From the UHGV virus genome UHGV-0044850: DNA of 10,997 nt. One strand, 5' to 3'. Both the position numbers and the translations under genes were made by a program. The notes beneath the pieces were generated by a model. That model saw only the letters and a list, made by a program, of their open reading frames with translations, was not told the origin of the DNA and searched no databases. The DNA comes from a virus. Of this stretch, positions 180 to 10,997 are shown one piece after another. Each line of letters opens with the position of its first letter. Position 1 is the stretch's first letter.

Positions 180-944
180 TCAATCTCCATTGGTATCAAT
201 GTTTACAGCCTGACAAGACTCTTTGAGCACCCAGTCAATAGCGTCTTTCCATGCCTCTGTTTCGACTGGTGGATTTTCACGCTTAACCTGTTCATAGAAG
301 CGCACTGCTTTAACCAGTCCTTCCGGTACTACTGGTGATGGCTGTTTAGCTTCTAAATCAGCAATTCTGTCAACCACGGCATCGACAGCATCTGAAAAGC
401 CGAACCAGTTGCTCCACTCCGGCTCATCCCCGGTTGCTGCAAAGTACATATCTGCTAAAGCAGATTCAGCATGGTCACGCTCGTTAATGAGTTGCTCTTC
501 GCTTTTCTCCAGTTCAGCAATACGCTTACCCCCATCCGAGATAACACCTTCGTAATACTCACGCTGCTCGTTGAGTTTTGATTTTGTCTCCTCAAGCTCA
601 ACTCTCAGCTTCCCAACAGTAAGAGCAATATCCTCGTTCTCCTGGTCGCGGCGTTTTATGTATTGCTGGTTTCTTTCCCGTTCATCCAGCAGTGCCAGCA
701 CAGTAGCCGGATTGGCTGCGGCGATGAATTCAGCATTGGCCTGCTGTTCCATTTGGAAATCTTCATCGAAACCGCTTTCTGGATGCGCTCCTTCAATTCT
801 GCAAATGGGAATATATCCAGCAACTTCACGATGAATTAGCGCATAATCACCATCAAATCGGCTCTCTCCATATTCGAGCGACCACTCACCACACGTTGCT
901 TTTTCTGCCGCTTCACGCAGTGCCTGATAGTTAATTTCGCTCAC
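180..944 (-). CDS. Ead/Ea22-like early protein
   Basis: 254-aa ORF. Start codon is GTG (944-942) with GAGAGG RBS about 6 nt upstream, and the GTG overlaps the TGA stop of the upstream zinc-finger gene (GTGA). Charged, coiled-coil-like middle (ELEETKSKLNEQREYYEG...ELEKSEEQLINERD). Family assignment from recollection of Ea22-like proteins and position in the operon; longer than lambda Ea22. Confidence 0.55.
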   Translation of the reverse strand: MSEINYQALREAAEKATCGEWSLEYGESRFDGDYALIHREVAGYIPICRIEGAHPESGFDEDFQMEQQANAEFIAAANPATVLALLDERERNQQYIKRRDQENEDIALTVGKLRVELEETKSKLNEQREYYEGVISDGGKRIAELEKSEEQLINERDHAESALADMYFAATGDEPEWSNWFGFSDAVDAVVDRIADLEAKQPSPVVPEGLVKAVRFYEQVKRENPPVETEAWKDAIDWVLKESCQAVNIDTNGD

Positions 945-1162
945 TTCGAACCTCTCTGTTTACTGATAAGCTCCAGATCCTCCTGGCAACTTGCACAAGT
1001 CCGACAACCCTGAACGACCAGGCGTCTTCGTTCATCTATGGGATCGCCACACTCACAACAATGAGTTGCGGATACAGTCTGGTAGTTCAGACGACGCATT
1101 TTTATTGCTGTATTGCGCTGTAATTCTTCAATTTCTGATGCTGAATCAATGATGTCCGCCAT
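941..1162 (-). CDS. TraR/DksA-family C4 zinc-finger protein (lambda Orf73-like)
   Basis: 73-aa ORF with ATG start. C-x2-C...C-x2-C motif (CCECGDPIDERRRLVVQGCRTCASC) typical of phage and conjugative-plasmid TraR/DksA-type zinc fingers. Confidence 0.7.
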   Translation of the reverse strand: MADIIDSASEIEELQRNTAIKMRRLNYQTVSATHCCECGDPIDERRRLVVQGCRTCASCQEDLELISKQRGSK

Positions 1163-1260
1163 CTTTCATTAATCCCTGAATTGTTGGTTAATACGCTTGA
1201 GGGTAAATGCGAATAATAAAAAAGGAGCCTGTAGCTCCCTGATGATTTTGCTTTTCATGT

Positions 1261-1542
1261 TCACCGTTCCTTAAAGACGCCGTTTAACATGCCGATCGCC
1301 AGGCTTAAATGAGTCGGTGTGAATCCCATCAGCGTTACCGTTTCGCGGTGCTTCTTTAGTACGCTACGGCAAATGTCATCGACGTTTTTATCCGGAAAAT
1401 GCTGTCTGGCTTTTTTGATTTCAGAATTAGCCTGACGGGCAATGCTGCGAAGGGCGTTTTCTTGCTGAGGTGTCATTGAACAAGCCCCATGTCGGCAAGC
1501 ATAAGCACACAGAATATGAAGCCCGCTGCCAGAAAAATGCAT
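1261..1542 (-). CDS. hypothetical small early protein with Cys/His-rich N-terminus (alternative start ATG at 1476 gives 71 aa)
   Basis: 93-aa ORF with ATG at 1542, directly preceded in frame by TGA. An internal ATG at 1476 has a GGGG stretch 9-12 nt upstream. No strong RBS for either start. N-terminal 22 residues carry C12, C16, H18, C21. Confidence 0.45.
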   Translation of the reverse strand: MHFSGSGLHILCAYACRHGACSMTPQQENALRSIARQANSEIKKARQHFPDKNVDDICRSVLKKHRETVTLMGFTPTHLSLAIGMLNGVFKER

Positions 1543-1552
1543 TCAGTGGTTG

Positions 1553-1744
1553 TCATACCTGGTCTCTCTCATCTGCTTCTGCTTTCGCCACCATCATTTC
1601 CAGCTTTTGTGAAAGGGATGTGGCTAACGTATGAAATTCTTCGTCTGTTTCTACTGGTATTGGCACAAACCTGACTCCAATTTGAGCAAGGCTATGTGCC
1701 ATCTCAATACTCGTTCTTAACTCAACAGGAGATGCTTTGTGCAT
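1553..1744 (-). CDS. small early protein, lambda orf63-like
   Basis: 63-aa ORF, ATG at 1744 with GGGAGG RBS. Length (192 nt) and the 28-nt overlap with the next gene match the lambda orf63/orf60a arrangement as I recall it. Confidence 0.6.
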   Translation of the reverse strand: MHKASPVELRTSIEMAHSLAQIGVRFVPIPVETDEEFHTLATSLSQKLEMMVAKAEADERDQV

Positions 1745-1899
1745 ACCGCCTCCCGTTTATTATTTATCTTCTCAGCCAGCCGCTGTGCTTTCAGTGGATT
1801 TCTGATAACAGAAAGGCCGGGAAATACCCAGCCTCGCTTTGTAACGGAGTAGACGAAAGTGATCGCGCCTACCCGGATATTATCGTGAGGATGCGTCAT
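1717..1899 (-). CDS. small early protein, lambda orf60a-like
   Basis: The track ORF begins at ATG 1905, but the second ATG at 1899 has GGGGAG about 8 nt upstream and gives 60 aa. This ATG overlaps the exo stop codon (ATGA). Confidence 0.6.
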
Positions 1900-2576
1900 C
1901 GCCATTGCTCCCCAAATACAAAACTAATTTCAGCCAGTGCCTCGTCCATTTTTTCGATGAACTCCGGCACCATCTCGTCAAAACTCGCCATGTACTTTTC
2001 ATTCCGCTCAATCACGACATAATGCAGGCCTTCACGCTTCATGCGCGGGTCATAGTTGGCAAAGTACCAGGCATCTTTTCGCGTCACCCACATGCTGTAC
2101 TGCACCTGGGCCATGTAAGCCGATTTTATTGCCTCGAAACCACCGAGCCGGAATTTCATGAAATCCCGGGAGGTAAACGGGCATTTCAGTTCAAGGCCGT
2201 TGCCGTCACTGCATAAACCATCGGGAGAGCAGGCGGTGCGCATACTTTCGTCGCGATAGATGATCGGGGATTCAGTAATATTCACGCCGGAAGTGAATTC
2301 AAACAGGGTTCTGGCGTCGTTCTCGTACTGTTTTCCCCAGGCCAGCGCCTTAGCATTAACTTCCGGAGCCACACCGGTGCAAACCTCAGCCAGCAGGGTG
2401 TGGAAGTAGGACATTTTCATGTCAGGCCACTTCTTTCCTGAGCGGGGCTTTGCTATCACGTTGTGAACTTCTGAAGCGGTGATGACGCCGAGCCGTAATT
2501 TGTGCCATGCATCATCCCCCTGTTCGACAGCTCTCACGTCGATCCCGGTACGCTGCAGGATAATGTCCGGTATCAT
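1896..2576 (-). CDS. exo: lambda-type 5'-3' exonuclease (Red alpha, YqaJ-type)
   Basis: 226-aa ORF ([40 protein letters not shown]...FVFGEQWR), essentially lambda Exo from memory with a few substitutions. Its stop overlaps the bet start. Confidence 0.95.
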
Positions 2577-3358
2577 GCTGCCACCTTCTGCTCAGTGGCT
2601 TTCTGTTTCAGGAATCCAAGAGCTTTCACTGCTTCGGCCTGTGTCAGTTCTGACGATGCGCGAATGTCGCGGCGAAATATCTGGGAACAGAGCGGCAATA
2701 AGTCGTCATCCCATGTTTTATCCAGGGCGATCAGCAGAGTGTTAATCTCCTGCATGGTTTCATCGTTAACCGGAGTGATGTCGCGTTCCGGCTGACGTTC
2801 TGCAGTGTATGCAGTATTTTCGACAATGCGCTCGGCTTCATCCTTGTCATAGATACCAGCAAATCCGAAGGCCAGACGGGCACACTGAATCATGGCTTTA
2901 TGCCGTAACATCCGTTTGGGATGCGACTGCCACGGCCCCGTGATTTCTCTGCCTTCGCGAGTTTTGAATGGTTCGCGGCGGCATTCATCCATCCATTCGG
3001 TAACGCAGATCGGATGATTGCGGTCTTTGCGGTAAATCCGGCATGTACATGATTCATTGTCCTGCTCAAAGTCCATACCATCAAACTGCTGGTTTTCATT
3101 GATGATGCGGGACCAGCCATCAACGCCCACCACCGGAACAATGCCGTTCTGCTTATCAGGGAAGGCGTAAATTTCTTTCGTCCACGGATTAAGGCCGTAC
3201 TGGTTGGCGACGATCAACAATGCGATGAACTGCGCATCGCTGGCATCACCTTTAAATGCCGTCTGGCGAAGAGTGGTGATCAGTTCCTGTGGGTCGACAG
3301 AATCCATGCCGACACGTTCAGCCAGCTTCCCTGCCAGCGTTGCGAGTGCTGTACTCAT
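2573..3358 (-). CDS. bet: single-strand annealing protein Bet (Red beta)
   Basis: 261-aa ORF ([72 protein letters not shown]...) matching lambda Bet. ATG start; 4-nt overlap with exo. Confidence 0.95.
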
Positions 3359-3363
3359 CCGTT

Positions 3364-3660
3364 TTATACCTCTGAATCAATATCAGCCTGATGGTGAGCA
3401 ATGGTTTCAACTATGTACCGGATGTGTTCTGCCATGCGCTCCTGAAACTCAACATCGTCATCAAACGCACGGGTAATGGCTTTTTTGCTGGCCCCGTGGC
3501 GTTGCAAATGATCGATGCATAGCGATTCAAACAGGTGCTGGGGCAGGCCTTTTTCCATGTCGTCTGCCAGTTCTGCCTCTTTCTCTTCACGGGCGATCTG
3601 CTGGTAGTGACGCGCCCAGCTCTGAGCCTCAAGACGATCCTGAATGTAATAAGCGTTCAT
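3364..3660 (-). CDS. gam: Gam, short form (GamS), RecBCD inhibitor
   Basis: 98-aa ORF ([60 protein letters not shown]...IDSEV) matching lambda GamS. AGGAG RBS about 8 nt upstream of the ATG at 3660. The upstream ATG at 3781 that would give the long form is out of frame here (see findings). Confidence 0.9.
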
Positions 3661-3735
3661 GGCTGAACTCCTGAAAATGGCTGTGAAAATATCGCCCGCG
3701 AAATGCCAGGCTGATTAGGAAAACAGGAAAGGGGG

Positions 3736-3879
3736 TTAGTGAATGCTTTTGCTTGATCTCAGTTTCAGTATTAATATCCATTTTTTATAAGCGTCGACGG
3801 CCTCACGAAACATCTTTTCATCGCCAATAAAAGTGGCGATAGTGAATTTAGTCTGGATAGCCATAATTGTTTGATCCAT
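3736..3879 (-). CDS. kil: Kil (host cell-division inhibitor, FtsZ-targeting)
   Basis: 47-aa reading frame ([47 protein letters not shown]) inside the longer 3736..4005 track ORF. ATG at 3879 with AGGAG about 9 nt upstream. Overlaps the cIII 3' end by 32 nt as in lambda. Confidence 0.85.
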
Positions 3880-4012
3880 TTTTTGGGACTCCTGGCTGAT
3901 TAAGTATGTCGATAAGGCGTTTCCATCCGTCACGTAATTTACGGGTGATTCGTTCAAGTAAAGATTCGGAAGGGCAGCCAGCAACAGGCCACCCTGCAAT
4001 GGCATATTGCAT
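3848..4012 (-). CDS. cIII: cIII (FtsH/HflB protease inhibitor, stabilises cII)
   Basis: Hand translation of the minus strand gives [54 protein letters not shown] (54 aa), matching lambda cIII. ATG at 4012 with GGAG about 8 nt upstream. Below the ORF-track size cutoff. Confidence 0.9.
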   Translation of the reverse strand: MQYAIAGWPVAGCPSESLLERITRKLRDGWKRLIDILNQPGVPKNGSNNYGYPD

Positions 4013-4084
4013 GGTGTGCTCCTTATTTATACATAACGAAAAACGCCTCGAGTGAAGCGTAATTGGTATGCGGTAACGCCGCGC

Positions 4085-4453
4085 TCAGGCGGCCTTGATA
4101 GTCATATCATCTGAATCAAATATTCCTGATGTATCGATATCGGTAATTCTTATTCCTTCACTACCATCCATTGGAGGCCATCCTTCCTGACCATTTCCAT
4201 CATTCCAGTCGAACTCACACACAACACCATATGCATTTAAGTCGCTTGAAATTGCTATAAGCAGAGCATGTTGCGCCAGCATGATTAATACAGCATTTAA
4301 TACAGAGCCGTGTTTATTGAGTCGGTATTCAGAGTCTGACCAGAAATTATTAATCTGGTGAAGTTTTTCCTCTGTCATTACGTCATGGTCAATTTCAATT
4401 TCTATTGATGCTTTCCAGTCGTAATCAATGATGTATTTTTTGATGTTTGACAT
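4085..4453 (-). CDS. ea10: Ea10-like early protein (function unknown)
   Basis: 122-aa ORF with ATG start. Same length as lambda ea10 and the same 72-nt spacing from cIII. I do not recall the lambda Ea10 sequence, so identity is by position and size only. Confidence 0.6.
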   Translation of the reverse strand: MSNIKKYIIDYDWKASIEIEIDHDVMTEEKLHQINNFWSDSEYRLNKHGSVLNAVLIMLAQHALLIAISSDLNAYGVVCEFDWNDGNGQEGWPPMDGSEGIRITDIDTSGIFDSDDMTIKAA

Positions 4454-4609
4454 CTATTCATATCCTCATAGATAAAAAATCGCCCTCACACTGGAGGGCA
4501 AAGAAGATTTCCAATAATCAGAACAAGTCGGCTCCTGTTTAGTTACGAGCGACATTGCTCCGTGTATTCACTCGTTGGAATGAATACACAGTGCAGTGTT
4601 TATTCTGTT

Positions 4610-5787
<1,178 letters not shown>

Positions 5788-5823
5788 TATGGCACCTGTG
5801 TTGTTCTGAGGTGAGCATATCAC

Positions 5824-5859
5824 CTCTGTTCAGGTGGCCAAATTCAGTAAACCACTTCA
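5824..5859. repeat. IS911 terminal inverted repeat (end proximal to orfA)
   Basis: Reverse complement begins TGAAGTGG and has the shared core TGGCCACC. IS3-family 5'-TG...CA-3' termini. Confidence 0.7.
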
Positions 5860-5888
5860 GTTATTTATGCCAAAAATAAAGGCCACTA

Positions 5889-6089
5889 TCAGGCAGCTTT
5901 GTTGTTCTGTTTACCAAGTTCTCTGGCAATCATTGCCGTCGTTCGTATTGCCCATTTATCGACATATTTCCCATCTTCCATTACAGGAAACATTTCTTCA
6001 GGCTTAACCATGCATTCCGATTGCAGCTTGCATCCATTGCATCGTTTGAATTGTCCACACCATTGATTTGTATCAATAGTCGTAGTCAT
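5889..6089 (-). CDS. ral: Ral (restriction alleviation, modulates type I restriction-modification)
   Basis: 66-aa ORF MTTTIDTNQWCGQFKRCNGCKLQSECMVKPEEMFPVMEDGKYVDKWAIRTTAMIARELGKQNNKAA, near-identical to lambda Ral from memory. Confidence 0.9.
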   Translation of the reverse strand: MTTTIDTNQWCGQFKRCNGCKLQSECMVKPEEMFPVMEDGKYVDKWAIRTTAMIARELGKQNNKAA

Positions 6090-6159
6090 ACGGATAGTCC
6101 TGGTATTGTTCCATCACATCTTGAGGATGCTCTTCGAACTCTTCAAATTCTTCTTCCAT
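6073..6159 (-). CDS. orf28-like acidic microprotein (28 aa)
   Basis: Hand translation MEEEFEEFEEHPQDVMEQYQDYPYDYDY. ATG at 6159 with AAGGTGA RBS. Overlaps the ral start by 17 nt, as lambda orf28 does. Below the ORF-track cutoff. Confidence 0.55.
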   Translation of the reverse strand: MEEEFEEFEEHPQDVMEQYQDYPYDYDY

Positions 6160-6302
6160 ATATCACCTTAAATAGTGGATTGCGGTAGTAAAGATTGTGC
6201 CTGTCTTTTAACCACATCAGGCTCGGTGGTTCTCGTGTACCCCTACAACGAGAAATCGGATAAACTCTATTCACCCCTACAGAGAGCAAAAGAGAAACGC
6301 CG

Positions 6303-6884
6303 ATGAACAACTCATGGTGGCAGGAACTAATGCATTTTTTCCTGCAAGGAATGACACTTAAACAGTTGATTCATATGCTAATCATCCTGATCATATTGAT
6401 TATTGTTATGCCGGTAAGCGTAAAAGAATGGATAAACCTGCATAGTCCAGAAATCCTTCCTCATTACTGGATGTATTACATCCTGTTGTTTTGCGTTAGC
6501 TATGTGCTTAACGGCGTTGTTAATTCCGCTTATCACGCTGTGACTGAAAGAATTGAGGTATTCGCTGCTCAGAAGCGCAAATCTAAAGAAGAAAAATATG
6601 TGCAAGATTTGTTTGATTCGTTAACTCTTGGAGAAAGAGCGTATTTGGCATTCGCTGTAGCCGCTAATAACCAGCTACAAACGGAAAAGGGCGCTCATGA
6701 ATCAATTTCATTGCTCAAAAAAGGACTCCTCGTTCGAAGGCCTCCTGCTGTTGGATATCCTGATACCGACCGTTTCGTTATCCCTGAAAGCTATAGACAT
6801 GAGTGCTACATTAGGTTTGCCGGGAAGGCAGACAGCCTTATGGATGAACTTATCGCTCAGGATAAGCATGGCAAAAACAAGTAA
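6303..6884 (+). CDS. sieB: SieB-like superinfection exclusion membrane protein
   Basis: 193-aa ORF on the opposite strand to the pL operon. Two strongly hydrophobic segments (LIHMLIILIILIIVMPV and YWMYYILLFCVSYVLNGVV). Position between ral/orf28 and N matches lambda sieB; sequence identity to lambda SieB is recalled only loosely. Confidence 0.65.
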   Translation: MNNSWWQELMHFFLQGMTLKQLIHMLIILIILIIVMPVSVKEWINLHSPEILPHYWMYYILLFCVSYVLNGVVNSAYHAVTERIEVFAAQKRKSKEEKYVQDLFDSLTLGERAYLAFAVAANNQLQTEKGAHESISLLKKGLLVRRPPAVGYPDTDRFVIPESYRHECYIRFAGKADSLMDELIAQDKHGKNK

Positions 6885-6900
6885 TTAGCAAATGAATTTA

Positions 6901-7173
6901 TCATCTCGCCGTCAGTTGTTTTGATTTCCGGTAGCCTGCCGCGTAAAGAGCTACGTTCGGAAGACAAGTTGAACCTTCATATTTTCTGGTCAACGTTGTC
7001 AGAGTTATCACTTCTGCTCTCATTGCTGGTTTGAGCTTGCATTGCAAGACCACTCGTGAAGGGGTTGGCCTGTGTAGCTTGTCGGAGCTGATCGCCTCCT
7101 GACTTTGCAGATTTGCGCGACGAGCTCTACGGCGAGAAGCTGCGGTGCCTTTAAATTCTGTTTTTCTGGACAT
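6901..7173 (-). CDS. N: N-like transcription antiterminator (non-lambda specificity)
   Basis: 90 aa from the ATG at 7173, which has GGGAGGAA RBS about 5 nt upstream; the track ORF begins at an upstream ATG (7245) with no RBS. Arginine-rich motif near the N-terminus (GTAASRRRARRANLQ). Sits immediately downstream of the nutL-like element. Sequence differs from lambda N. Confidence 0.7.
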   Translation of the reverse strand: MSRKTEFKGTAASRRRARRANLQSQEAISSDKLHRPTPSRVVLQCKLKPAMRAEVITLTTLTRKYEGSTCLPNVALYAAGYRKSKQLTAR

Positions 7174-7271
7174 GGATTCCTCCCGAATAAACTTTGGCGA
7201 TGCAATCTCGAAGCTCCTCCTGAGACGGTTGCTTCGGCATTGCATCCCACAGCTTATGTGGTTGGGTGATC

Positions 7272-7316
7272 TGGCTTTTCAGCCACGTAGTCGAGAGTCG
7301 ACGTTGTTTAAAGAGC
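7272..7316 (-). promoter_or_regulatory. nutL-like site: boxA, spacer hairpin, boxB
   Basis: Minus-strand RNA GCUCUUUAAACAACGUCGACUCUCGACUACGUGGCUGAAAAGCCA. The boxA-like GCUCUUUAAA is followed by hairpin GUCGA-CUC-UCGAC and then boxB-like UGGC-UGAAAA-GCCA. Closely parallels the element after cro (9952..9997). Confidence 0.55.
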
Positions 7317-7362
7317 CTGCCAGTCTGTTCCATTTGGCTTCCAGCGTCCTGCTGACGGTTAA

Positions 7363-7391
7363 ATAGTACGATATGTACTTTACAAGATCAA
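7363..7391 (-). promoter_or_regulatory. candidate pL promoter with overlapping operator (oL)
   Basis: Minus strand: -35 TTGATC (7391..7386), 17-nt spacer, -10 TACTAT (7368..7363). The spacer holds the 11-mer AAAGTACATAT also found in the pR spacer. 15-bp palindrome AGTACGATATGTACT at 7365..7379. Confidence 0.4.
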
Positions 7392-7578
7392 TACAATTTG
7401 TTGTAAGTTGGCGTGGTTTTTTATAACGCTTTGTATTTAATAGTGTTGTTTTTTAGCGTGGATGTATTGCCTCGGCGATGTAAGGAGAGATCAGAATTGC
7501 GTGGTTTAGTGGGTTGCATCTATTTATTTTTCAATAAATATAATTGGTTATGTGTTTTTAGGTGGGCGAACGTGAGGC

Positions 7579-7604
7579 AAAGAAAACCCGGCGCTGAGGC
7601 CGGG
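7579..7604 (-). terminator. intrinsic terminator after the two-gene cassette
   Basis: Minus strand CCCGGCCUCAGCGCCGGG (6-bp GC stem) followed by UUUUCUUU, starting 6 nt after the stop of the 250-aa gene. Confidence 0.55.
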
Positions 7605-7609
7605 TTGTA

Positions 7610-8362
7610 TTATGCTGCAAGTCTCTTAACCCAAGTCTCTCTTTTGGAGAATGGTAGAACTTGGCTTGATTCATGGAAGAGTAAGGAGAGTTGTTGCATT
7701 TGATCACCAATTGCTTCGCTGTCTATAACAACAAATCTGTTGTTATACTCCTCACTTGAAGCTTTAAGATCAATTAGTTTCCCAAGCAATGAGTAAGCAC
7801 TATTCCAGCTTCCTCCGTGTTTCACGCTTGATGTAAAAACGTATTTAGGTATGTCGGTTTTTATTGTTACAGGGACGGTAATTTGATGTCCACTCAAGCC
7901 ATATACGTTTTCACGAAGAGAAAGTGCGTCTCTAAGCTCTGTGTGATATAGATAATCAATAACCATACTTTCAAACTTTTCAGCTTGAACTGGCTGATAC
8001 CAGTCTAACGACAAAGTTGATGCGAGTATACCAGCTCTAATTATGTTCGATGTAATCGCACCGACATCCTTTTCTGTTGCCCAAGCAATGATTTCTCCTC
8101 GAGCATTGAGTTCTGCGCCTTCTTTAAGCAGTAATTGTCGTATCTCATCAAGTCGTTTTTTGGTAAGCGAGATCCCTCTTGCCTCCATATTCATTAAGGC
8201 ATCGCATCTGTCACTAACTAAATACCTACCATTGACTTCACGGATAAAGGCACCGACATGCTCTCCATCATCACAGTAAGTGAATGGACTGATAATTCTC
8301 AAGGTCTTGCCTATTGGATGGCATTCGAAACCTAGTTGTGAGATCACTGTTGAGCACATCAT
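7610..8362 (-). CDS. hypothetical protein, second gene of cassette in the rex position (250 aa)
   Basis: ATG at 8362 overlaps the TGA stop of the upstream gene (ATGA). No transmembrane segment obvious. No similarity to RexA/RexB or other proteins I can recall. AT-rich coding sequence. Confidence 0.7.
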   Translation of the reverse strand: MMCSTVISQLGFECHPIGKTLRIISPFTYCDDGEHVGAFIREVNGRYLVSDRCDALMNMEARGISLTKKRLDEIRQLLLKEGAELNARGEIIAWATEKDVGAITSNIIRAGILASTLSLDWYQPVQAEKFESMVIDYLYHTELRDALSLRENVYGLSGHQITVPVTIKTDIPKYVFTSSVKHGGSWNSAYSLLGKLIDLKASSEEYNNRFVVIDSEAIGDQMQQLSLLFHESSQVLPFSKRETWVKRLAA

Positions 8363-8916
8363 ATTCCAAACCCCATTTGCCCCGACTCATCTTCAAGCGG
8401 TAAAGGTATTCTCCCAGAGTAAGTTATGTTCAGATGTTTACAGAAGTAATTCCAATACCCTACCAGGTCATCTGGGTTTATGTCATCTTCGATTGGAAAC
8501 GCTATTCTATCACTATAGTATCCAGCTTCTTCATAGTATACATGGTAGTGAGCACCGTAAATGATATCTTGGTACTTCGGATGATCGACCTTGTAACTAT
8601 TCGTGTGTTTGTCAAAGTGATAGGTATCTACCGCGAAAACCCTCTTGTTATGATAGAAAGCAATAATATTTATTTTAGGGTAAGAAATCGGGTCATCAGG
8701 TTCTGAATCCTGATCTGGTTTCCATTTCAGTTCAAACTTTAGCCCTTGTATAGGTATACAATCCTCATCCAAGGGGATGATATGGGCTTGTAGCCACATA
8801 TCAGAGCGACTTGGTTTCTGTTTCCATTTAACGCCAGAAAAGTTAACTATTTTTTTACAATAAAGTACTTTATCAACTTCTACTTGGCTTGGCTGATAAT
8901 CATCTATTTTTGCCAA
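8359..8916 (-). CDS. hypothetical protein, first gene of cassette in the rex position (185 aa if TTG start)
   Basis: The frame opens right after a TAA stop. The first start-like codon is TTG at 8916 with AGGGCGG 7-13 nt upstream; the first in-frame ATG (8799) has no RBS. Begins 39 nt downstream of the cI stop on the same strand. His/Tyr/Asp-rich (HYHVYYEEAGYY). Confidence 0.6.
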   Translation of the reverse strand: MAKIDDYQPSQVEVDKVLYCKKIVNFSGVKWKQKPSRSDMWLQAHIIPLDEDCIPIQGLKFELKWKPDQDSEPDDPISYPKINIIAFYHNKRVFAVDTYHFDKHTNSYKVDHPKYQDIIYGAHYHVYYEEAGYYSDRIAFPIEDDINPDDLVGYWNYFCKHLNITYSGRIPLPLEDESGQMGFGI

Positions 8917-8955
8917 TGTTTACCGCCCTGTAAATTGTAGATAAAAGTGGTTTCA

Positions 8956-9609
8956 TCACCCAAACGTCTCTTCAGGCCATTGGCTGGCGATAACTTTCCC
9001 CACAACGGAACAACTCTCATTGCATGGGATCATTGGGTATTGTGGGTTTAGTGGCTGTAGAAACACCTGACCGCTATCCCTGATCAGTTTCTTGAAGGTA
9101 AATTCATCACCACCAAGTCTGGCTATGCAGAAATCGCCGGGCTCAACAGCTTGCTCAGGGTCAACCAGAATTAACATCCCGTCAGGAAAGCTGGGTTTGG
9201 AACCTGTTGGTGCGGTCATTGAGTTACCTTCAACCTCAAGCCAGAATGCAGAGTCACTGGCTTTTTTGGTTGTGCTTACCAATCTCTCCGCATCGCCTTT
9301 GGTAAAGGTTCTGAGTTCTGGAGAGAACATCCCAGCCTGAACATGAGAAAAAACAGGGTACTCATATTGTTTTTTAACTGGGGCCGATGAGTATTCGCCA
9401 ACAGGTGAAAATGTCCCGTCGTGGTTGAATGATATGTTATCAATACCAAGGTATTTAAACACCACACCAATATCACTAAGAGATGGATGACGAGATCCGC
9501 GCAACCAGTGTCCAATCCCACCCTGCGTCATACCTAGCTCTTCGGCTAACTTCTCTTGAGTTATGCCGAGCTCTTTCATTCTGGATCTAGCCAGTTCATA
9601 CCATTTCAT
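8956..9609 (-). CDS. cI: CI-type prophage repressor: HTH N-terminal domain plus lambda-type LexA-like (S24) C-terminal domain
   Basis: C-terminal about 130 aa ([28 protein letters not shown]...[12 protein letters not shown]) match lambda cI, including the VQAG cleavage region and the GNSM serine and FKK lysine motifs. N-terminal domain ([38 protein letters not shown]) is a different helix-turn-helix. Start taken as the ATG at 9609 with AAGGA 7 nt upstream; in-frame ATGs at 9615 and 9651 and a TTG at 9657 are alternatives. Confidence 0.85.
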
Positions 9610-9726
9610 TTTCATGTCCTTATTATTACGCTCTGTACTGGAACCATCCATGCACAATGTGTATTTTTACTTGTATTCGCAAAGTACATATTGTATTTTT
9701 TTATTCGTGTTTACTATGGAGGGCAT
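9610..9726. promoter_or_regulatory. oR region with divergent pR/pRM (operator sites not resolved)
   Basis: 117-bp AT-rich intergenic region between divergent cI and cro. Candidate pR: -35 TTGTAT (9671..9676), 17-nt spacer, -10 TATTTT (9694..9699). The spacer contains AAAGTACATAT (9681..9691), the same 11-mer as in the pL spacer. Repeated TGTATT motifs. Confidence 0.45.
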
Positions 9727-9942
9727 ATGAGCAACCTACGAAAATATCGAGAGTCACTGAATATCTCTCAAACAACACTTGCTAAGGCAGTTGGATGCAC
9801 ACAGGGAGCTATCGGACATTGGGAATCTGGTCGTCGCTTCCCAGACCTTAAAACATGCCGTGCTCTTGTTGCGTGCCTAAACAAGTTAGGCGCAAAAGTC
9901 AGTCTTGATGACGTGTTCCCGCCGGAACACAAAGCCGCTTAA
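9727..9942 (+). CDS. cro: Cro-type repressor (helical HTH type, not lambda Cro)
   Basis: 71 aa (MSNLRKYRESLNISQTTLAKAVGCTQGAIGHWESGRRFPDLKTCRALVACLNKLGAKVSLDDVFPPEHKAA). ATG at 9727 with GGAGGG RBS. HTH segment paralogous to the cI N-terminal domain. Confidence 0.85.
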   Translation: MSNLRKYRESLNISQTTLAKAVGCTQGAIGHWESGRRFPDLKTCRALVACLNKLGAKVSLDDVFPPEHKAA

Positions 9943-9951
9943 TAAGCGGAT

Positions 9952-9997
9952 CCGCTCTTTGTAACAACGGACATTCGTCCTACGTCGCTGAAAAGCG
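9952..9997 (+). promoter_or_regulatory. nutR-like site: boxA, spacer hairpin, boxB
   Basis: CGCTCTTTGTAACAACG (boxA-like), then hairpin GGAC-ATTC-GTCC (9968..9979), TACGT, then boxB-like TCGC-TGAAAA-GCGA (9984..9997). Lies just after the cro stop. Confidence 0.55.
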
Positions 9998-10027
9998 AGT
10001 TCCAAGATATCTGACCAACTAAGGCCA

Positions 10028-10045
10028 TATGCGTTTCCACGCATA
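10028..10045 (+). terminator. hairpin between nutR and cII (possible tR1-associated structure)
   Basis: TATGCGT-TTCC-ACGCATA, a 7-bp stem, followed by CCTTTCAAC, which is only weakly U-rich. Lambda tR1 is Rho-dependent, so this is tentative. Confidence 0.25.
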
Positions 10046-10083
10046 CCTTTCAACTAACTATTCACTATTGGAAATCTTAAGAA

Positions 10084-10380
10084 ATGGAAAGAACAAGTTA
10101 CAGCAAACTATCACAGCGTGACGTTGATCGCGCAGAAACAGATTTACTTATCAATCTGTCAGCTATTACCCAGCGCGGTCTGGCAAAGATGATTGGCTGT
10201 CATGAATCGAAGATAAGCAGAACGGACTGGAGATTTATTGCTTCGGTCTTGTGTGCTTTCGGAATGGCATCAGACATCAGTCCGATTAGCAGGGCTTTTA
10301 AGTATGCGCTTGATGGACTCACCAATAAAAAACGCCCGGCGGCAACCGAGCGTTCTGAACAAATCCAGATGGAATTCTGA
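10084..10380 (+). CDS. cII: CII transcriptional activator (chimeric: lambda-type C-terminus)
   Basis: 98-aa ORF. C-terminal TNKKRPAATERSEQIQMEF matches lambda cII. Central HTH region (RGLAKMIGCHESKISRTDWRF) and N-terminus differ from lambda. Confidence 0.85.
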   Translation: MERTSYSKLSQRDVDRAETDLLINLSAITQRGLAKMIGCHESKISRTDWRFIASVLCAFGMASDISPISRAFKYALDGLTNKKRPAATERSEQIQMEF

Positions 10381-10400
10381 GGTCATTACTGGATCAATCC
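10324..10400 (-). ncRNA. oop: oop antisense RNA (overlaps the cII 3' end)
   Basis: Minus strand matches my recollection of lambda oop: ...CUGAGGUCAUUACUGGAUC...GAUUUGUUCAGAACGCUCGGUUGCCGCCGGGCGUUUUUUAUU, ending in a stem plus U6 terminator (+ strand 10325..10352). 5' end is approximate. Confidence 0.6.
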
Positions 10401-10412
10401 ACAGGAGTCATT

Positions 10413-10997
10413 ATGACAAATACAGCAAAAATACTCAACTTCTGCAGAGGTAACTTTGCCAAACAGGAGCGTAATGTGGCAGATCTCGATGATGGTTACG
10501 CCAGACTATCAAATATGCTGCTTGAGGCTTATTCAGGCGCAGATCTGACCAAGCGACAGTTTAAAGTGCTGCTTGCCATTCTGCGTAAAACCTATGGATG
10601 GAATAAACCAATGGACAGAATCACCGATTCTCAACTTAGCGAGATTACAAAGTTACCCGTCAAACGGTGCAATGAAGCCAAGTTAGAACTCGTCAGAATG
10701 AATATTATCAAGCAGCAAGGCGGCATGTTTGGACCAAATAAAAACATCTCAGAATGGTGTATCCCTCAAAACGAGGGAAAATCCCCTAAAACGAGGGATA
10801 AAACATCCCTCAAATTGGGGGATTGCTATCCCTCAAAACAGGGGGACACAAAAGACACTATTACAAAAGAAAAAAGAAAAGATTATTCGTCAGAGAATTC
10901 TGGCGAATCCTCTGACCAGCCAGAAAACGACCTTTCTGTGGTGAAACCGGATGCTGCAATTCAGAGCGGCAGCAAGTGGGGGACAGCAGAAGACCTG
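10413..10997 (+). CDS. O: replication initiator O, N-terminal 195 codons (continues past window end)
   Basis: ATG at 10413 with AGGAG RBS; open to the window end. Reads MTNTAKILNF...RNVADLDDGYARLSNMLLEAYSGADLTKRQFKVLLAILRKTYGWNKPMDRITDSQLSEITKLPVKRCNEAKLELVRMNIIKQQGGMFGPNKNISEWCIPQNEGKSPKTRDK..., matching lambda O. Contains the ori iterons. Confidence 0.9.
   Translation, partial: MTNTAKILNFCRGNFAKQERNVADLDDGYARLSNMLLEAYSGADLTKRQFKVLLAILRKTYGWNKPMDRITDSQLSEITKLPVKRCNEAKLELVRMNIIKQQGGMFGPNKNISEWCIPQNEGKSPKTRDKTSLKLGDCYPSKQGDTKDTITKEKRKDYSSENSGESSDQPENDLSVVKPDAAIQSGSKWGTAEDL
10761..10846 (+). repeat. ori-lambda iterons (four ~18-bp O-binding repeats) with adjacent AT-rich region
   Basis: ATCCCTCAAAACGAGGGA (10761), ATCCCCTAAAACGAGGGA (10781), ATCCCTCAAATTGGGGGA (about 10806), ATCCCTCAAAACAGGGGGA (10828), followed by the A-rich stretch ACAAAAGAAAAAAGAAAAGATTATTC (about 10851-10890). 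Confidence 0.85.

Follow-up and report, generated by a model that had tools for sequence, protein, structure and literature searches.

The stretch of DNA considered here (10,997 nucleotides of the virus genome UHGV-0044850, called the window in what follows) carries the immunity region of a lambdoid prophage, in which a cI repressor gene on the minus strand is accompanied by a divergent cro (9727-9942), by cII (10084-10380) and by homologues of N (6901-7245) and SieB (6303-6884). The minus strand from 8956 to 9657 is one long open reading frame (ORF), which ends at the stop codon TGA 8958-8956 and contains four in-frame candidate starts: ATG 9609, ATG 9615, ATG 9651 and TTG 9657. It is highly probable that this gene is the intact maintenance repressor of the prophage, of the immunity type cI2c. 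Its architecture is already published and widespread, and the analysis presented here confirms known biology. The parts of the gene are listed below, with positions counted from the first letter of the window.

8956-9615, minus strand: cI repressor gene of the two-domain LexA/cI type, from ATG 9615 to TGA 8958-8956, 219 amino acids (preferred reading)
9367-9615, minus strand: non-lambda N-terminal helix-turn-helix (HTH) domain and linker, residues 1-83, with DNA identity to lambda at chance level
8955-9366, minus strand: lambda-type block, comprising the cleavage-site region and the S24 catalytic/oligomerisation domain (residues 84-219), the stop codon and one base
9331-9336, minus strand: codons of Ala94-Gly95, counterpart of the lambda self-cleavage site Ala111-Gly112 in the alignment to lambda cI
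9280-9282, minus strand: Leu112 codon TTG, Trp129 in lambda, the sole amino-acid difference from lambda within the shared block
9220-9222, minus strand: Ser132 codon, counterpart of the lambda catalytic Ser149, an invariant alignment column in a stretch identical to lambda
9091-9093, minus strand: Lys175 codon, counterpart of lambda Lys192, an invariant alignment column

A lambda-type block behind another DNA-binding domain

The original prediction, made from the letters without database searches, had described the protein as a lambda-type C-terminal module joined to a different DNA-binding module, with one visible difference from lambda (AERLVST in place of AERWVST). Comparison with lambda cI (NC_001416 37227-37940) by BLASTP confirmed both statements: from the junction to the C-terminus 135 of 136 residues are identical, the lone replacement is the tryptophan-to-leucine change in AERLVST, and the N-terminal part shows weak, scattered similarity. 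In the numbering of the lambda protein (NP_040628; Protein Data Bank (PDB) entries 3BDN, 1F39, 2HO0 and 8GMU), residues 101-236 equal residues 84-219 of the window protein except for W129L.

At the DNA level, a stop-anchored ungapped comparison with lambda gave 25-29 identical positions in each bin of 30 over 8956-9375, and beyond 9375 the count drops to 2-11 of 30. The blastn block joins window 8955-9366 to lambda 37226-37637 with 93.4% identity over 412 nt; 26 of the 27 mismatches inside it are synonymous and one is the replacement (TGG to TTG at 9282-9280). On the 3' side the similarity ends after the T that follows the cI stop codon. On the other side the junction falls at 9366/9367, 10 codons upstream of the Ala94-Gly95 codons (9336-9331), in agreement with the predicted recombination joint in the linker near the cleavage site, and all lambda-immunity alleles found, in phages and in E. 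coli genomes, begin to match at this same base, 9366. Both edges of the block are sharp, and the protein and DNA alignments proposed as a check on the prediction are far from showing the uniform divergence that would have spoken against it. The flanks are also of the kind foreseen, being both non-lambda: the N-terminal domain, the operators and cro on one side, and a two-gene cassette on the other.

The two halves of the protein are recognized by separate Pfam models, HTH_3 (PF01381) at residues 11-58 counted from ATG 9615 (41 bits, cut-off 23) and Peptidase_S24 (PF00717) at residues 87-209 (99.7 bits, cut-off 23.3). In lambda, Ala111-Gly112 is established as the site of self-cleavage. The sequence features of a self-cleaving S24 repressor are found in the window protein: a C-terminal Peptidase_S24 domain, a Ser/Lys pair, an Ala-Gly bond upstream of the pair and an N-terminal HTH. 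Moreover, residues 84-219 match the lambda cI chains 8gmu_A (the 101-236 fragment) and 3bdn_A over all 136 residues, and the shared block and the 8gmu_A fragment start at the same residue. Because the block coincides with this fragment along its whole length, the oligomerisation surfaces appear to travel as one unit with the cleavage-site strand and the Ser132/Lys175 pair.

The N-terminal part, which had been described as a different HTH domain of roughly 90 residues, is indeed a non-lambda HTH_3 domain, but it is shorter than supposed, 81-83 residues, and its fold is related to that of lambda. In fact, the best PDB sequence matches are distant HTH proteins only (top E=2.4e-4), and the lambda N-terminal domain itself is found as a distant match (1lli, E=4.5e-4). 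The domain is about 20 residues shorter at its N-terminus than the lambda one and is devoid of the lambda N-terminal arm. Its acidic residues Glu21 and Glu25 align with Glu34 and Asp38 of lambda, which form the patch that activates the promoter for repressor maintenance (PRM). The N-terminal part of the cI of the P22-like Salmonella phage SPN9CC is about 52% identical to it, and the recognition helix TQGGIGHW also occurs in the Cro protein of the window. Residues 1-83 are predicted to set the immunity specificity of the repressor.

Operators, Cro and the start of the repressor message

Putative operators were located by pattern and weight-matrix scans, which were compared with the annotation of the Stx1-converting phage AP005153 (Stx, Shiga toxin); its three annotated putative operators of the right operator region (OR) correspond to the window sites within 9624-9698. 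A second cluster, the putative left operator region (OL), lies upstream of N. The elements relevant to operator reading and to expression of the repressor are as follows.

9624-9640: putative OR3, TATTACGCTCTGTACTG, centre 17 bp upstream of ATG 9615 (AP005153 annotation, pattern and weight-matrix scans)
9650-9666: putative OR2, ATGCACAATGTGTATTT, centre 43 bp upstream of ATG 9615, containing ATG 9651 and TTG 9657 (AP005153 annotation, both scans)
9682-9698: putative OR1, AAGTACATATTGTATTT, the best-scoring site in the window (AP005153 annotation, pattern and weight-matrix scans)
7364-7380, 7389-7405 and 7422-7438: putative OL1, OL2 and OL3, upstream of N (pattern and weight-matrix scans)
9727-9942, plus strand: cro, 71 amino acids, of HTH_3 type (Pfam HTH_3, 46 bits), a paralogue of the cI N-terminal domain
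9622-9627, minus strand: predicted PRM -10 hexamer AATAAT, separated by 6 nt from the A of ATG 9615; AP005153 carries an annotated putative PRM here
9645-9650, minus strand: predicted weak PRM -35 element TGGATG

The six putative 17-bp operators have the half-site consensus AAaTACA and are all among the seven best-scoring sites of the window, a ranking that is partly circular as the weight matrix was built from the same six sites. The lambda operator (TATCACCGCCAGTGGTA) is absent from the whole window at up to 3 mismatches. Since the N-terminal domain is not of the lambda type and lambda operators were not found, the repressor is predicted to fall outside the lambda immunity group. Another operator-like 17-mer, TATTACATCCTGTTGTT, is located at 6474-6490 in the sieB homologue; it scores like the weaker candidates and may be due to chance.

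The window Cro is 35% identical to the N-terminal domain of the repressor, and both have the recognition helix TQG-IGHW. In this it is unlike lambda Cro, which is not a paralogue of the lambda repressor N-terminal domain. In phages 434 and P22, Cro and repressor are known to read the same sites, and the common helix fits the same arrangement in the window.

A repressor specificity different from that of lambda, as originally proposed, is consistent with these data, namely the missing lambda operator, the six sites of the window's own type and the HTH-type Cro. Gel shifts (PMC10742460) gave lambda CI an apparent affinity of 3.7-6.4 µM for VT2-Sa operators and of 0.2-0.35 µM for lambda OR1 and OL1, and these values fit different specificities. 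In the mechanism that we propose, residues 1-83 would read the six operators, half of which lie between cI and cro and half upstream of N, and residues 84-219 would supply the surfaces by which dimers form and contact each other, together with the cleavage strand and the Ser132/Lys175 pair. Because a lambda-type unit is joined to another DNA-reading unit, the repressor should dimerise, bind cooperatively and undergo RecA-stimulated self-cleavage like lambda cI, with an immunity unlike that of lambda. Lambda-like induction of the prophage is what we infer from the sequence identity.

The choice of the start codon is a real ambiguity, as had been pointed out: the RefSeq protein has 231 amino acids and other records 217 or 219, an inconsistency also remarked on by PMC3430580. 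The most likely translation start is ATG 9615, giving 219 amino acids. It is the best-supported candidate because homologues keep that methionine, because upstream extensions are unrelated to each other, and because ATG 9651 and TTG 9657 lie inside the putative OR2. In fact, the homologues that begin with MKTE-WYEL, MKTH-WYEL, MKTT-WHEI or MNKA-WFEL have a methionine at the 9615 position and none at the 9609 position. The extensions present in some records are mutually unrelated, and in SPN9CC the upstream frame is closed by an in-frame TAA. The 231- and 233-residue readings (from ATG 9651 and TTG 9657) were rejected: both begin inside the putative OR2 and upstream of the predicted PRM -10, with an extension that is not conserved and is closed by a stop in SPN9CC. 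The SPN9CC and 720R6 records annotate the 217-residue form.

The position of PRM was evaluated by comparing nine loci: the window, phages 720R6, SPN9CC, S137 and lambda, and prophages of Enterobacter, Edwardsiella, Pantoea and Serratia. Each of the nine has a hexamer that agrees with TATAAT at 4-6 of its 6 positions and stops 6-7 nt short of the conserved ATG. When the seven diverged non-lambda loci were shuffled, agreement at 5 or more of 6 positions at this -10 offset had a probability of 0.015-0.043 per locus, and TATAAT-like hexamers are nearly absent at other offsets of the same loci. The lambda arrangement is TAGATT, 6 nt, ATG, and the lambda PRM transcript starts at the A of the initiator ATG. 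The window thus resembles lambda in having its -10 hexamer 6 nt before the ATG and also in having OR2 and OR3 at nearly the same distance, with centres 43 and 17 bp upstream of ATG 9615 compared with 42 and 19 bp in lambda. Because the -10 spacing is kept in nine of nine loci and the OR2 and OR3 distances are near those of lambda, a leaderless PRM transcript starting at 9615, as in lambda, is likely; in a lysogen it would begin at the A of ATG 9615.

An AAGGA motif is present at 9620-9616, upstream of ATG 9615 and 6 nt before ATG 9609, and a TTGC-N6-TTGT box is found on the minus strand at 10106-10093, just inside cII. Only messages longer than the leaderless one, such as those of a PRE-like promoter (PRE, promoter for repressor establishment), would contain AAGGA, and one may speculate that on these it leads ATG 9609.

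Several points weigh against this picture of a lambda-like switch with its own immunity and a start at ATG 9615. The putative operators are spaced, centre to centre, 32 and 26 bp in OR and 25 and 33 bp in OL, and those of lambda 24 and 23 bp in OR and 24 and 20 bp in OL; because the predicted OR1-OR2 distance is 32 bp compared with 24 bp in lambda, lambda-style pairwise cooperativity there is not assured. According to the summary in PMC10742460, Fattah et al. reported cross-immunity; if this is correct, the immunity is not fully distinct. The RefSeq protein WP_001302016.1 (strain ATCC 11775, positions 9580-10275 of the locus examined), with its 231 amino acids, starts at the ATG inside the putative OR2. 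A generic scan of 7250-9800 for sigma-70 promoters and terminators called none of PRM, PR and PL, with a total no better than in shuffles. These missed calls are expected for weak -35 elements but they are not supportive, and so the placing of the promoters rests on comparative geometry. Moreover, the tryptophan-to-leucine change affects a conserved tryptophan, and the window repressor may depart somewhat from lambda cI in its cleavage or oligomerisation. The sequences show directly the boundaries of the block, the domain content, the distribution and the comparative conservation, and from these are inferred the binding to operators, the cooperativity, the RecA-stimulated cleavage, the use of promoters and the leaderless transcription start.

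Distribution and history of the domain combination

The repressor protein is identical, leucine included, to the CI of AP005153, and the genes differ at 8 of 660 nucleotides. Phages ev207, ev017, PhiR57_1 and PhiR63_2 carry the gene at 100% identity, and Nil2, YYZ-2008, 1717, 2851, Stx2 II, AP005153, the PA series and VT2-Sakai carry it at 99% at the nucleotide level. The variant was named cI2c by Smith et al. 2012 (PMC3430580), who described its lambda-identical C-terminus and inconsistent start annotations, and Fagerlund et al. 2022 (PMC8951638) assigned both this CI and the lambda one to the Stx-phage CI Clade I. The architecture is also in Fattah et al. 2000, as summarised in PMC10742460. 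The window gene can be placed in cI2c and Clade I, as it encodes the same repressor protein as AP005153 and has the operator region and cro of that type beside it. Over window 9730-8958, which takes in the gene, OR and the beginning of cro, Stx2 II and other Stx phages are about 98.6% identical to the window; the same DNA identity is found for AP005153, 1717, 2851, YYZ-2008, Nil2 and VT2-Sakai. Differences from these phages are found in the surroundings: the Stx phages have other ORFs downstream of the cI stop in place of the cassette of 185 and 250 amino acids, and the window prophage has a lambda-like recombination region and no stx gene within the window. In VT2-Sakai, cI carries a nonsense mutation at Gln31, and the window copy is intact.

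A survey of 5426 complete E. coli genomes found the entire gene in 776, one of them the type strain ATCC 11775, which has it at 100%; the lambda-type N-terminal domain occurs in 618 and the C-terminal block in 1212. The places with the C-terminal block (1437) nearly equal the sum of the places with the two N-terminal types (802 and 633). Because of this agreement and of the genome counts (1212 compared with 776 and 618), about 182 of the 5426 genomes appear to carry both lambda-type and window-type repressors, with near-identical C-terminal domains, a figure obtained by inclusion-exclusion over the genome counts.

In order to trace the two domains separately, 120 homologues from a large protein collection were divided in two at the junction motif that they conserve. 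Three N-terminal families are joined to C-terminal domains with 79% or more identity to that of the window: the lambda type, the WYEL..GHWLRG type to which the window belongs, and the GNYELG type of Salmonella phage S137. Inside each family there are graded relatives from Citrobacter, Salmonella, Enterobacter and other genera. For example, SPN9CC cI and repressors of Enterobacter, Kluyvera and Citrobacter have the same domain order, the junction motif F/Y-E-Y-P, the N-terminus MKMNWYD as in the window and TATAAT 6 nt before the ATG; compared with the window protein, they are about 52% identical in the N-terminal domain and about 80-86% in the C-terminal domain. In a neighbour-joining tree built from the C-terminal domains, members of the three N-terminal families are mixed with one another throughout, and in places the grouping follows the source genus, with Salmonella proteins of two N-terminal types lying together, for example. 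This tree gave no polarity, and the recombinant partner could not be identified from it.

The allele of phage vB_EcoP-720R6 has the same N-terminal domain as the window (94.5% nucleotide identity), and in its C-terminal block 16 informative sites side with lambda and 7 with the window. Those that side with lambda fall mainly in the 5' two-thirds of the block: from 9319 to 9103 most informative sites are lambda-like, and from 9060 to 8983 they are window-like, a mosaic appearance that suggests exchange within the C-terminal domain of this allele.

Repeated homologous exchange is the simplest reading of the history of the repressor. The conserved C-terminal coding DNA would serve as the crossover substrate for homologous recombination, the N-terminal domain, the operators and cro would be swapped between phages as a block, and the swap would have recurred in enterobacterial prophages; because of this repetition, neither the window gene nor that of lambda can be called the original. 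A parallel is offered by the laboratory hybrid lambda imm434 and phage 434, in which immunity moves as a block of N-terminal domain, operators and cro through crossovers in short shared stretches.

Among the other histories considered, the one that survives best takes lambda itself as the recombinant: the combination of a WYEL-type N-terminal domain with this C-terminal clade would be the older one, onto which the lambda N-terminal domain was grafted. WYEL-type N-termini do pair with this C-terminal clade across wide divergence and many host genera, and E. coli genomes carry the WYEL-type gene slightly more often than that of the lambda type. Lambda-type N-termini at 63-70% identity, however, also carry this C-terminal clade (79-85%), and with a C-terminal tree devoid of polarity we regard this order of events as possible but rather doubtful.

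A single recent crossover in which lambda gave its C-terminal half to a heteroimmune phage might seem the obvious explanation, given the identity of 135 of 136 residues, a boundary sharp to within one codon and the lambda likeness of much of the remaining window. In fact, the window is a mosaic with respect to lambda: 896-4609 and 5856-6282 are 97.5-97.7% identical to it, 7485-7606 is 90% and 10318-10997 is 98.5% identical. The cI block, at 93.4%, is 6.6% diverged from lambda, and the neighbouring lambda-like segments 1.5-2.5%; the closest lambda-immunity allele found is also at only about 95%. Because it is more diverged than its lambda-like neighbours, the C-terminal block appears to have its own history, and the repressor not to be the product of a recent cross with lambda. 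Moreover, the same domain combination is found in a diverged allele (91-92%), in phage 720R6 and in E. coli genome matches, and graded full-length homologues exist in Citrobacter, Salmonella and Enterobacter, all of which makes a recent chimera very improbable.

Still harder to credit is a history with no recombination at all, in which one ancestral gene kept its C-terminal half constant and its DNA-binding half evolved fast under diversifying selection: the two N-terminal domains do have a common fold and a distant homology, and the C-terminal half is under purifying selection (26 synonymous changes, 1 replacement), but a pure rate difference does not fit because synonymous identity changes abruptly, from about 6% difference in the C-terminal half to chance identity in an N-terminal DNA that is 20 codons shorter, with the switch falling within one codon, and because the C-terminal tree is incongruent with the N-terminal families; the flanking operators and cro are also unrelated to those of lambda.

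Read as repeated exchange, the locus offers a clean example of how new immunity types may arise, with the DNA-recognition block swapped and the damage-sensing and oligomerisation block kept common.

The replaced tryptophan and the genes downstream

An alignment of 120 sequences, made up of the window and lambda proteins and 118 homologue cluster representatives, has tryptophan in 115 of them at the position of lambda Trp129, where the window protein has Leu112. The leucine is shared with the Stx1-phage AP005153 allele and is the form that the Stx phages carry, and the diverged 720R6 allele keeps the tryptophan. A literature search on lambda Trp129 returned nothing relevant, and papers on Stx-phage crosstalk and on Chi-rich lambdoid phages proved to deal with matters other than this repressor. 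This repressor type controls many Shiga-toxin prophages, and its start codon, its promoter layout and the tryptophan-to-leucine change bear on induction and toxin release.

Because about 182 genomes carry both repressor types, mixed oligomers in natural polylysogens can be envisaged. A broader proposal, which we hold to be unlikely, is that the heteroimmune repressors co-resident in about 180 of the 5426 genomes, with 99% amino-acid identity in their C-terminal domains, form mixed dimers or oligomers, that the lineage-specific tryptophan-to-leucine change is an adaptation shifting the self-cleavage rate or the choice of partner, and that ATG 9615 is the start on a leaderless PRM transcript and ATG 9609 the start on a PRE transcript led by a Shine-Dalgarno sequence. 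If true, mixed oligomers would link two prophage switches, otherwise independent, in their stability and in their induction.

Lambda and the window differ, apart from the distantly homologous N-terminal domain and the operators, in the genes downstream of cI, where rexAB is replaced in the window. The features of this slot are:

7610-8916, minus strand: two-gene cassette of ORFs encoding 185 and 250 amino acids, in the rexA-rexB position downstream of cI
7585-7606, minus strand: terminator-like hairpin at the far border of the cassette slot, within the lambda-homologous segment 7485-7606

The segment 7485-7606 is 90% identical to lambda 35708-35826, just beyond rexB. The 250-residue cassette protein contains DUF1828 and is recognized by PADLOC as the candidate defence protein PDC-M24B (4.7e-10), the 185-residue protein has a weak PADLOC match to PDC-M24A (4.8e-4), and Pfam gives a weak DUF6978 match in the cassette.

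In E. coli CFSAN018748 (positions 2440-2600 of the locus examined, compared with window 8900-8983) the same cassette stands behind an unrelated S24 repressor. The interval from the stop codon of that repressor to the cassette contains a 28-nt relic of the lambda-type cI, its last codons unchanged (..QWPEETFG stop), and because of this relic the extreme 3' end of cI appears to be also used as a recombination joint. Phage 434 has the last 43 nt of its cI in common with the window gene at 90.7%, a likeness of the extreme 3' end only and not of the whole C-terminal domain.

In the window, an IS3-family element at 4610-5855 (ORFs 5485-5823 and 4640-5458; NCBIfam transpos_IS3), which the ATCC 11775 prophage copy lacks, splits the 97.5% lambda-like segment between ea10 and ral.

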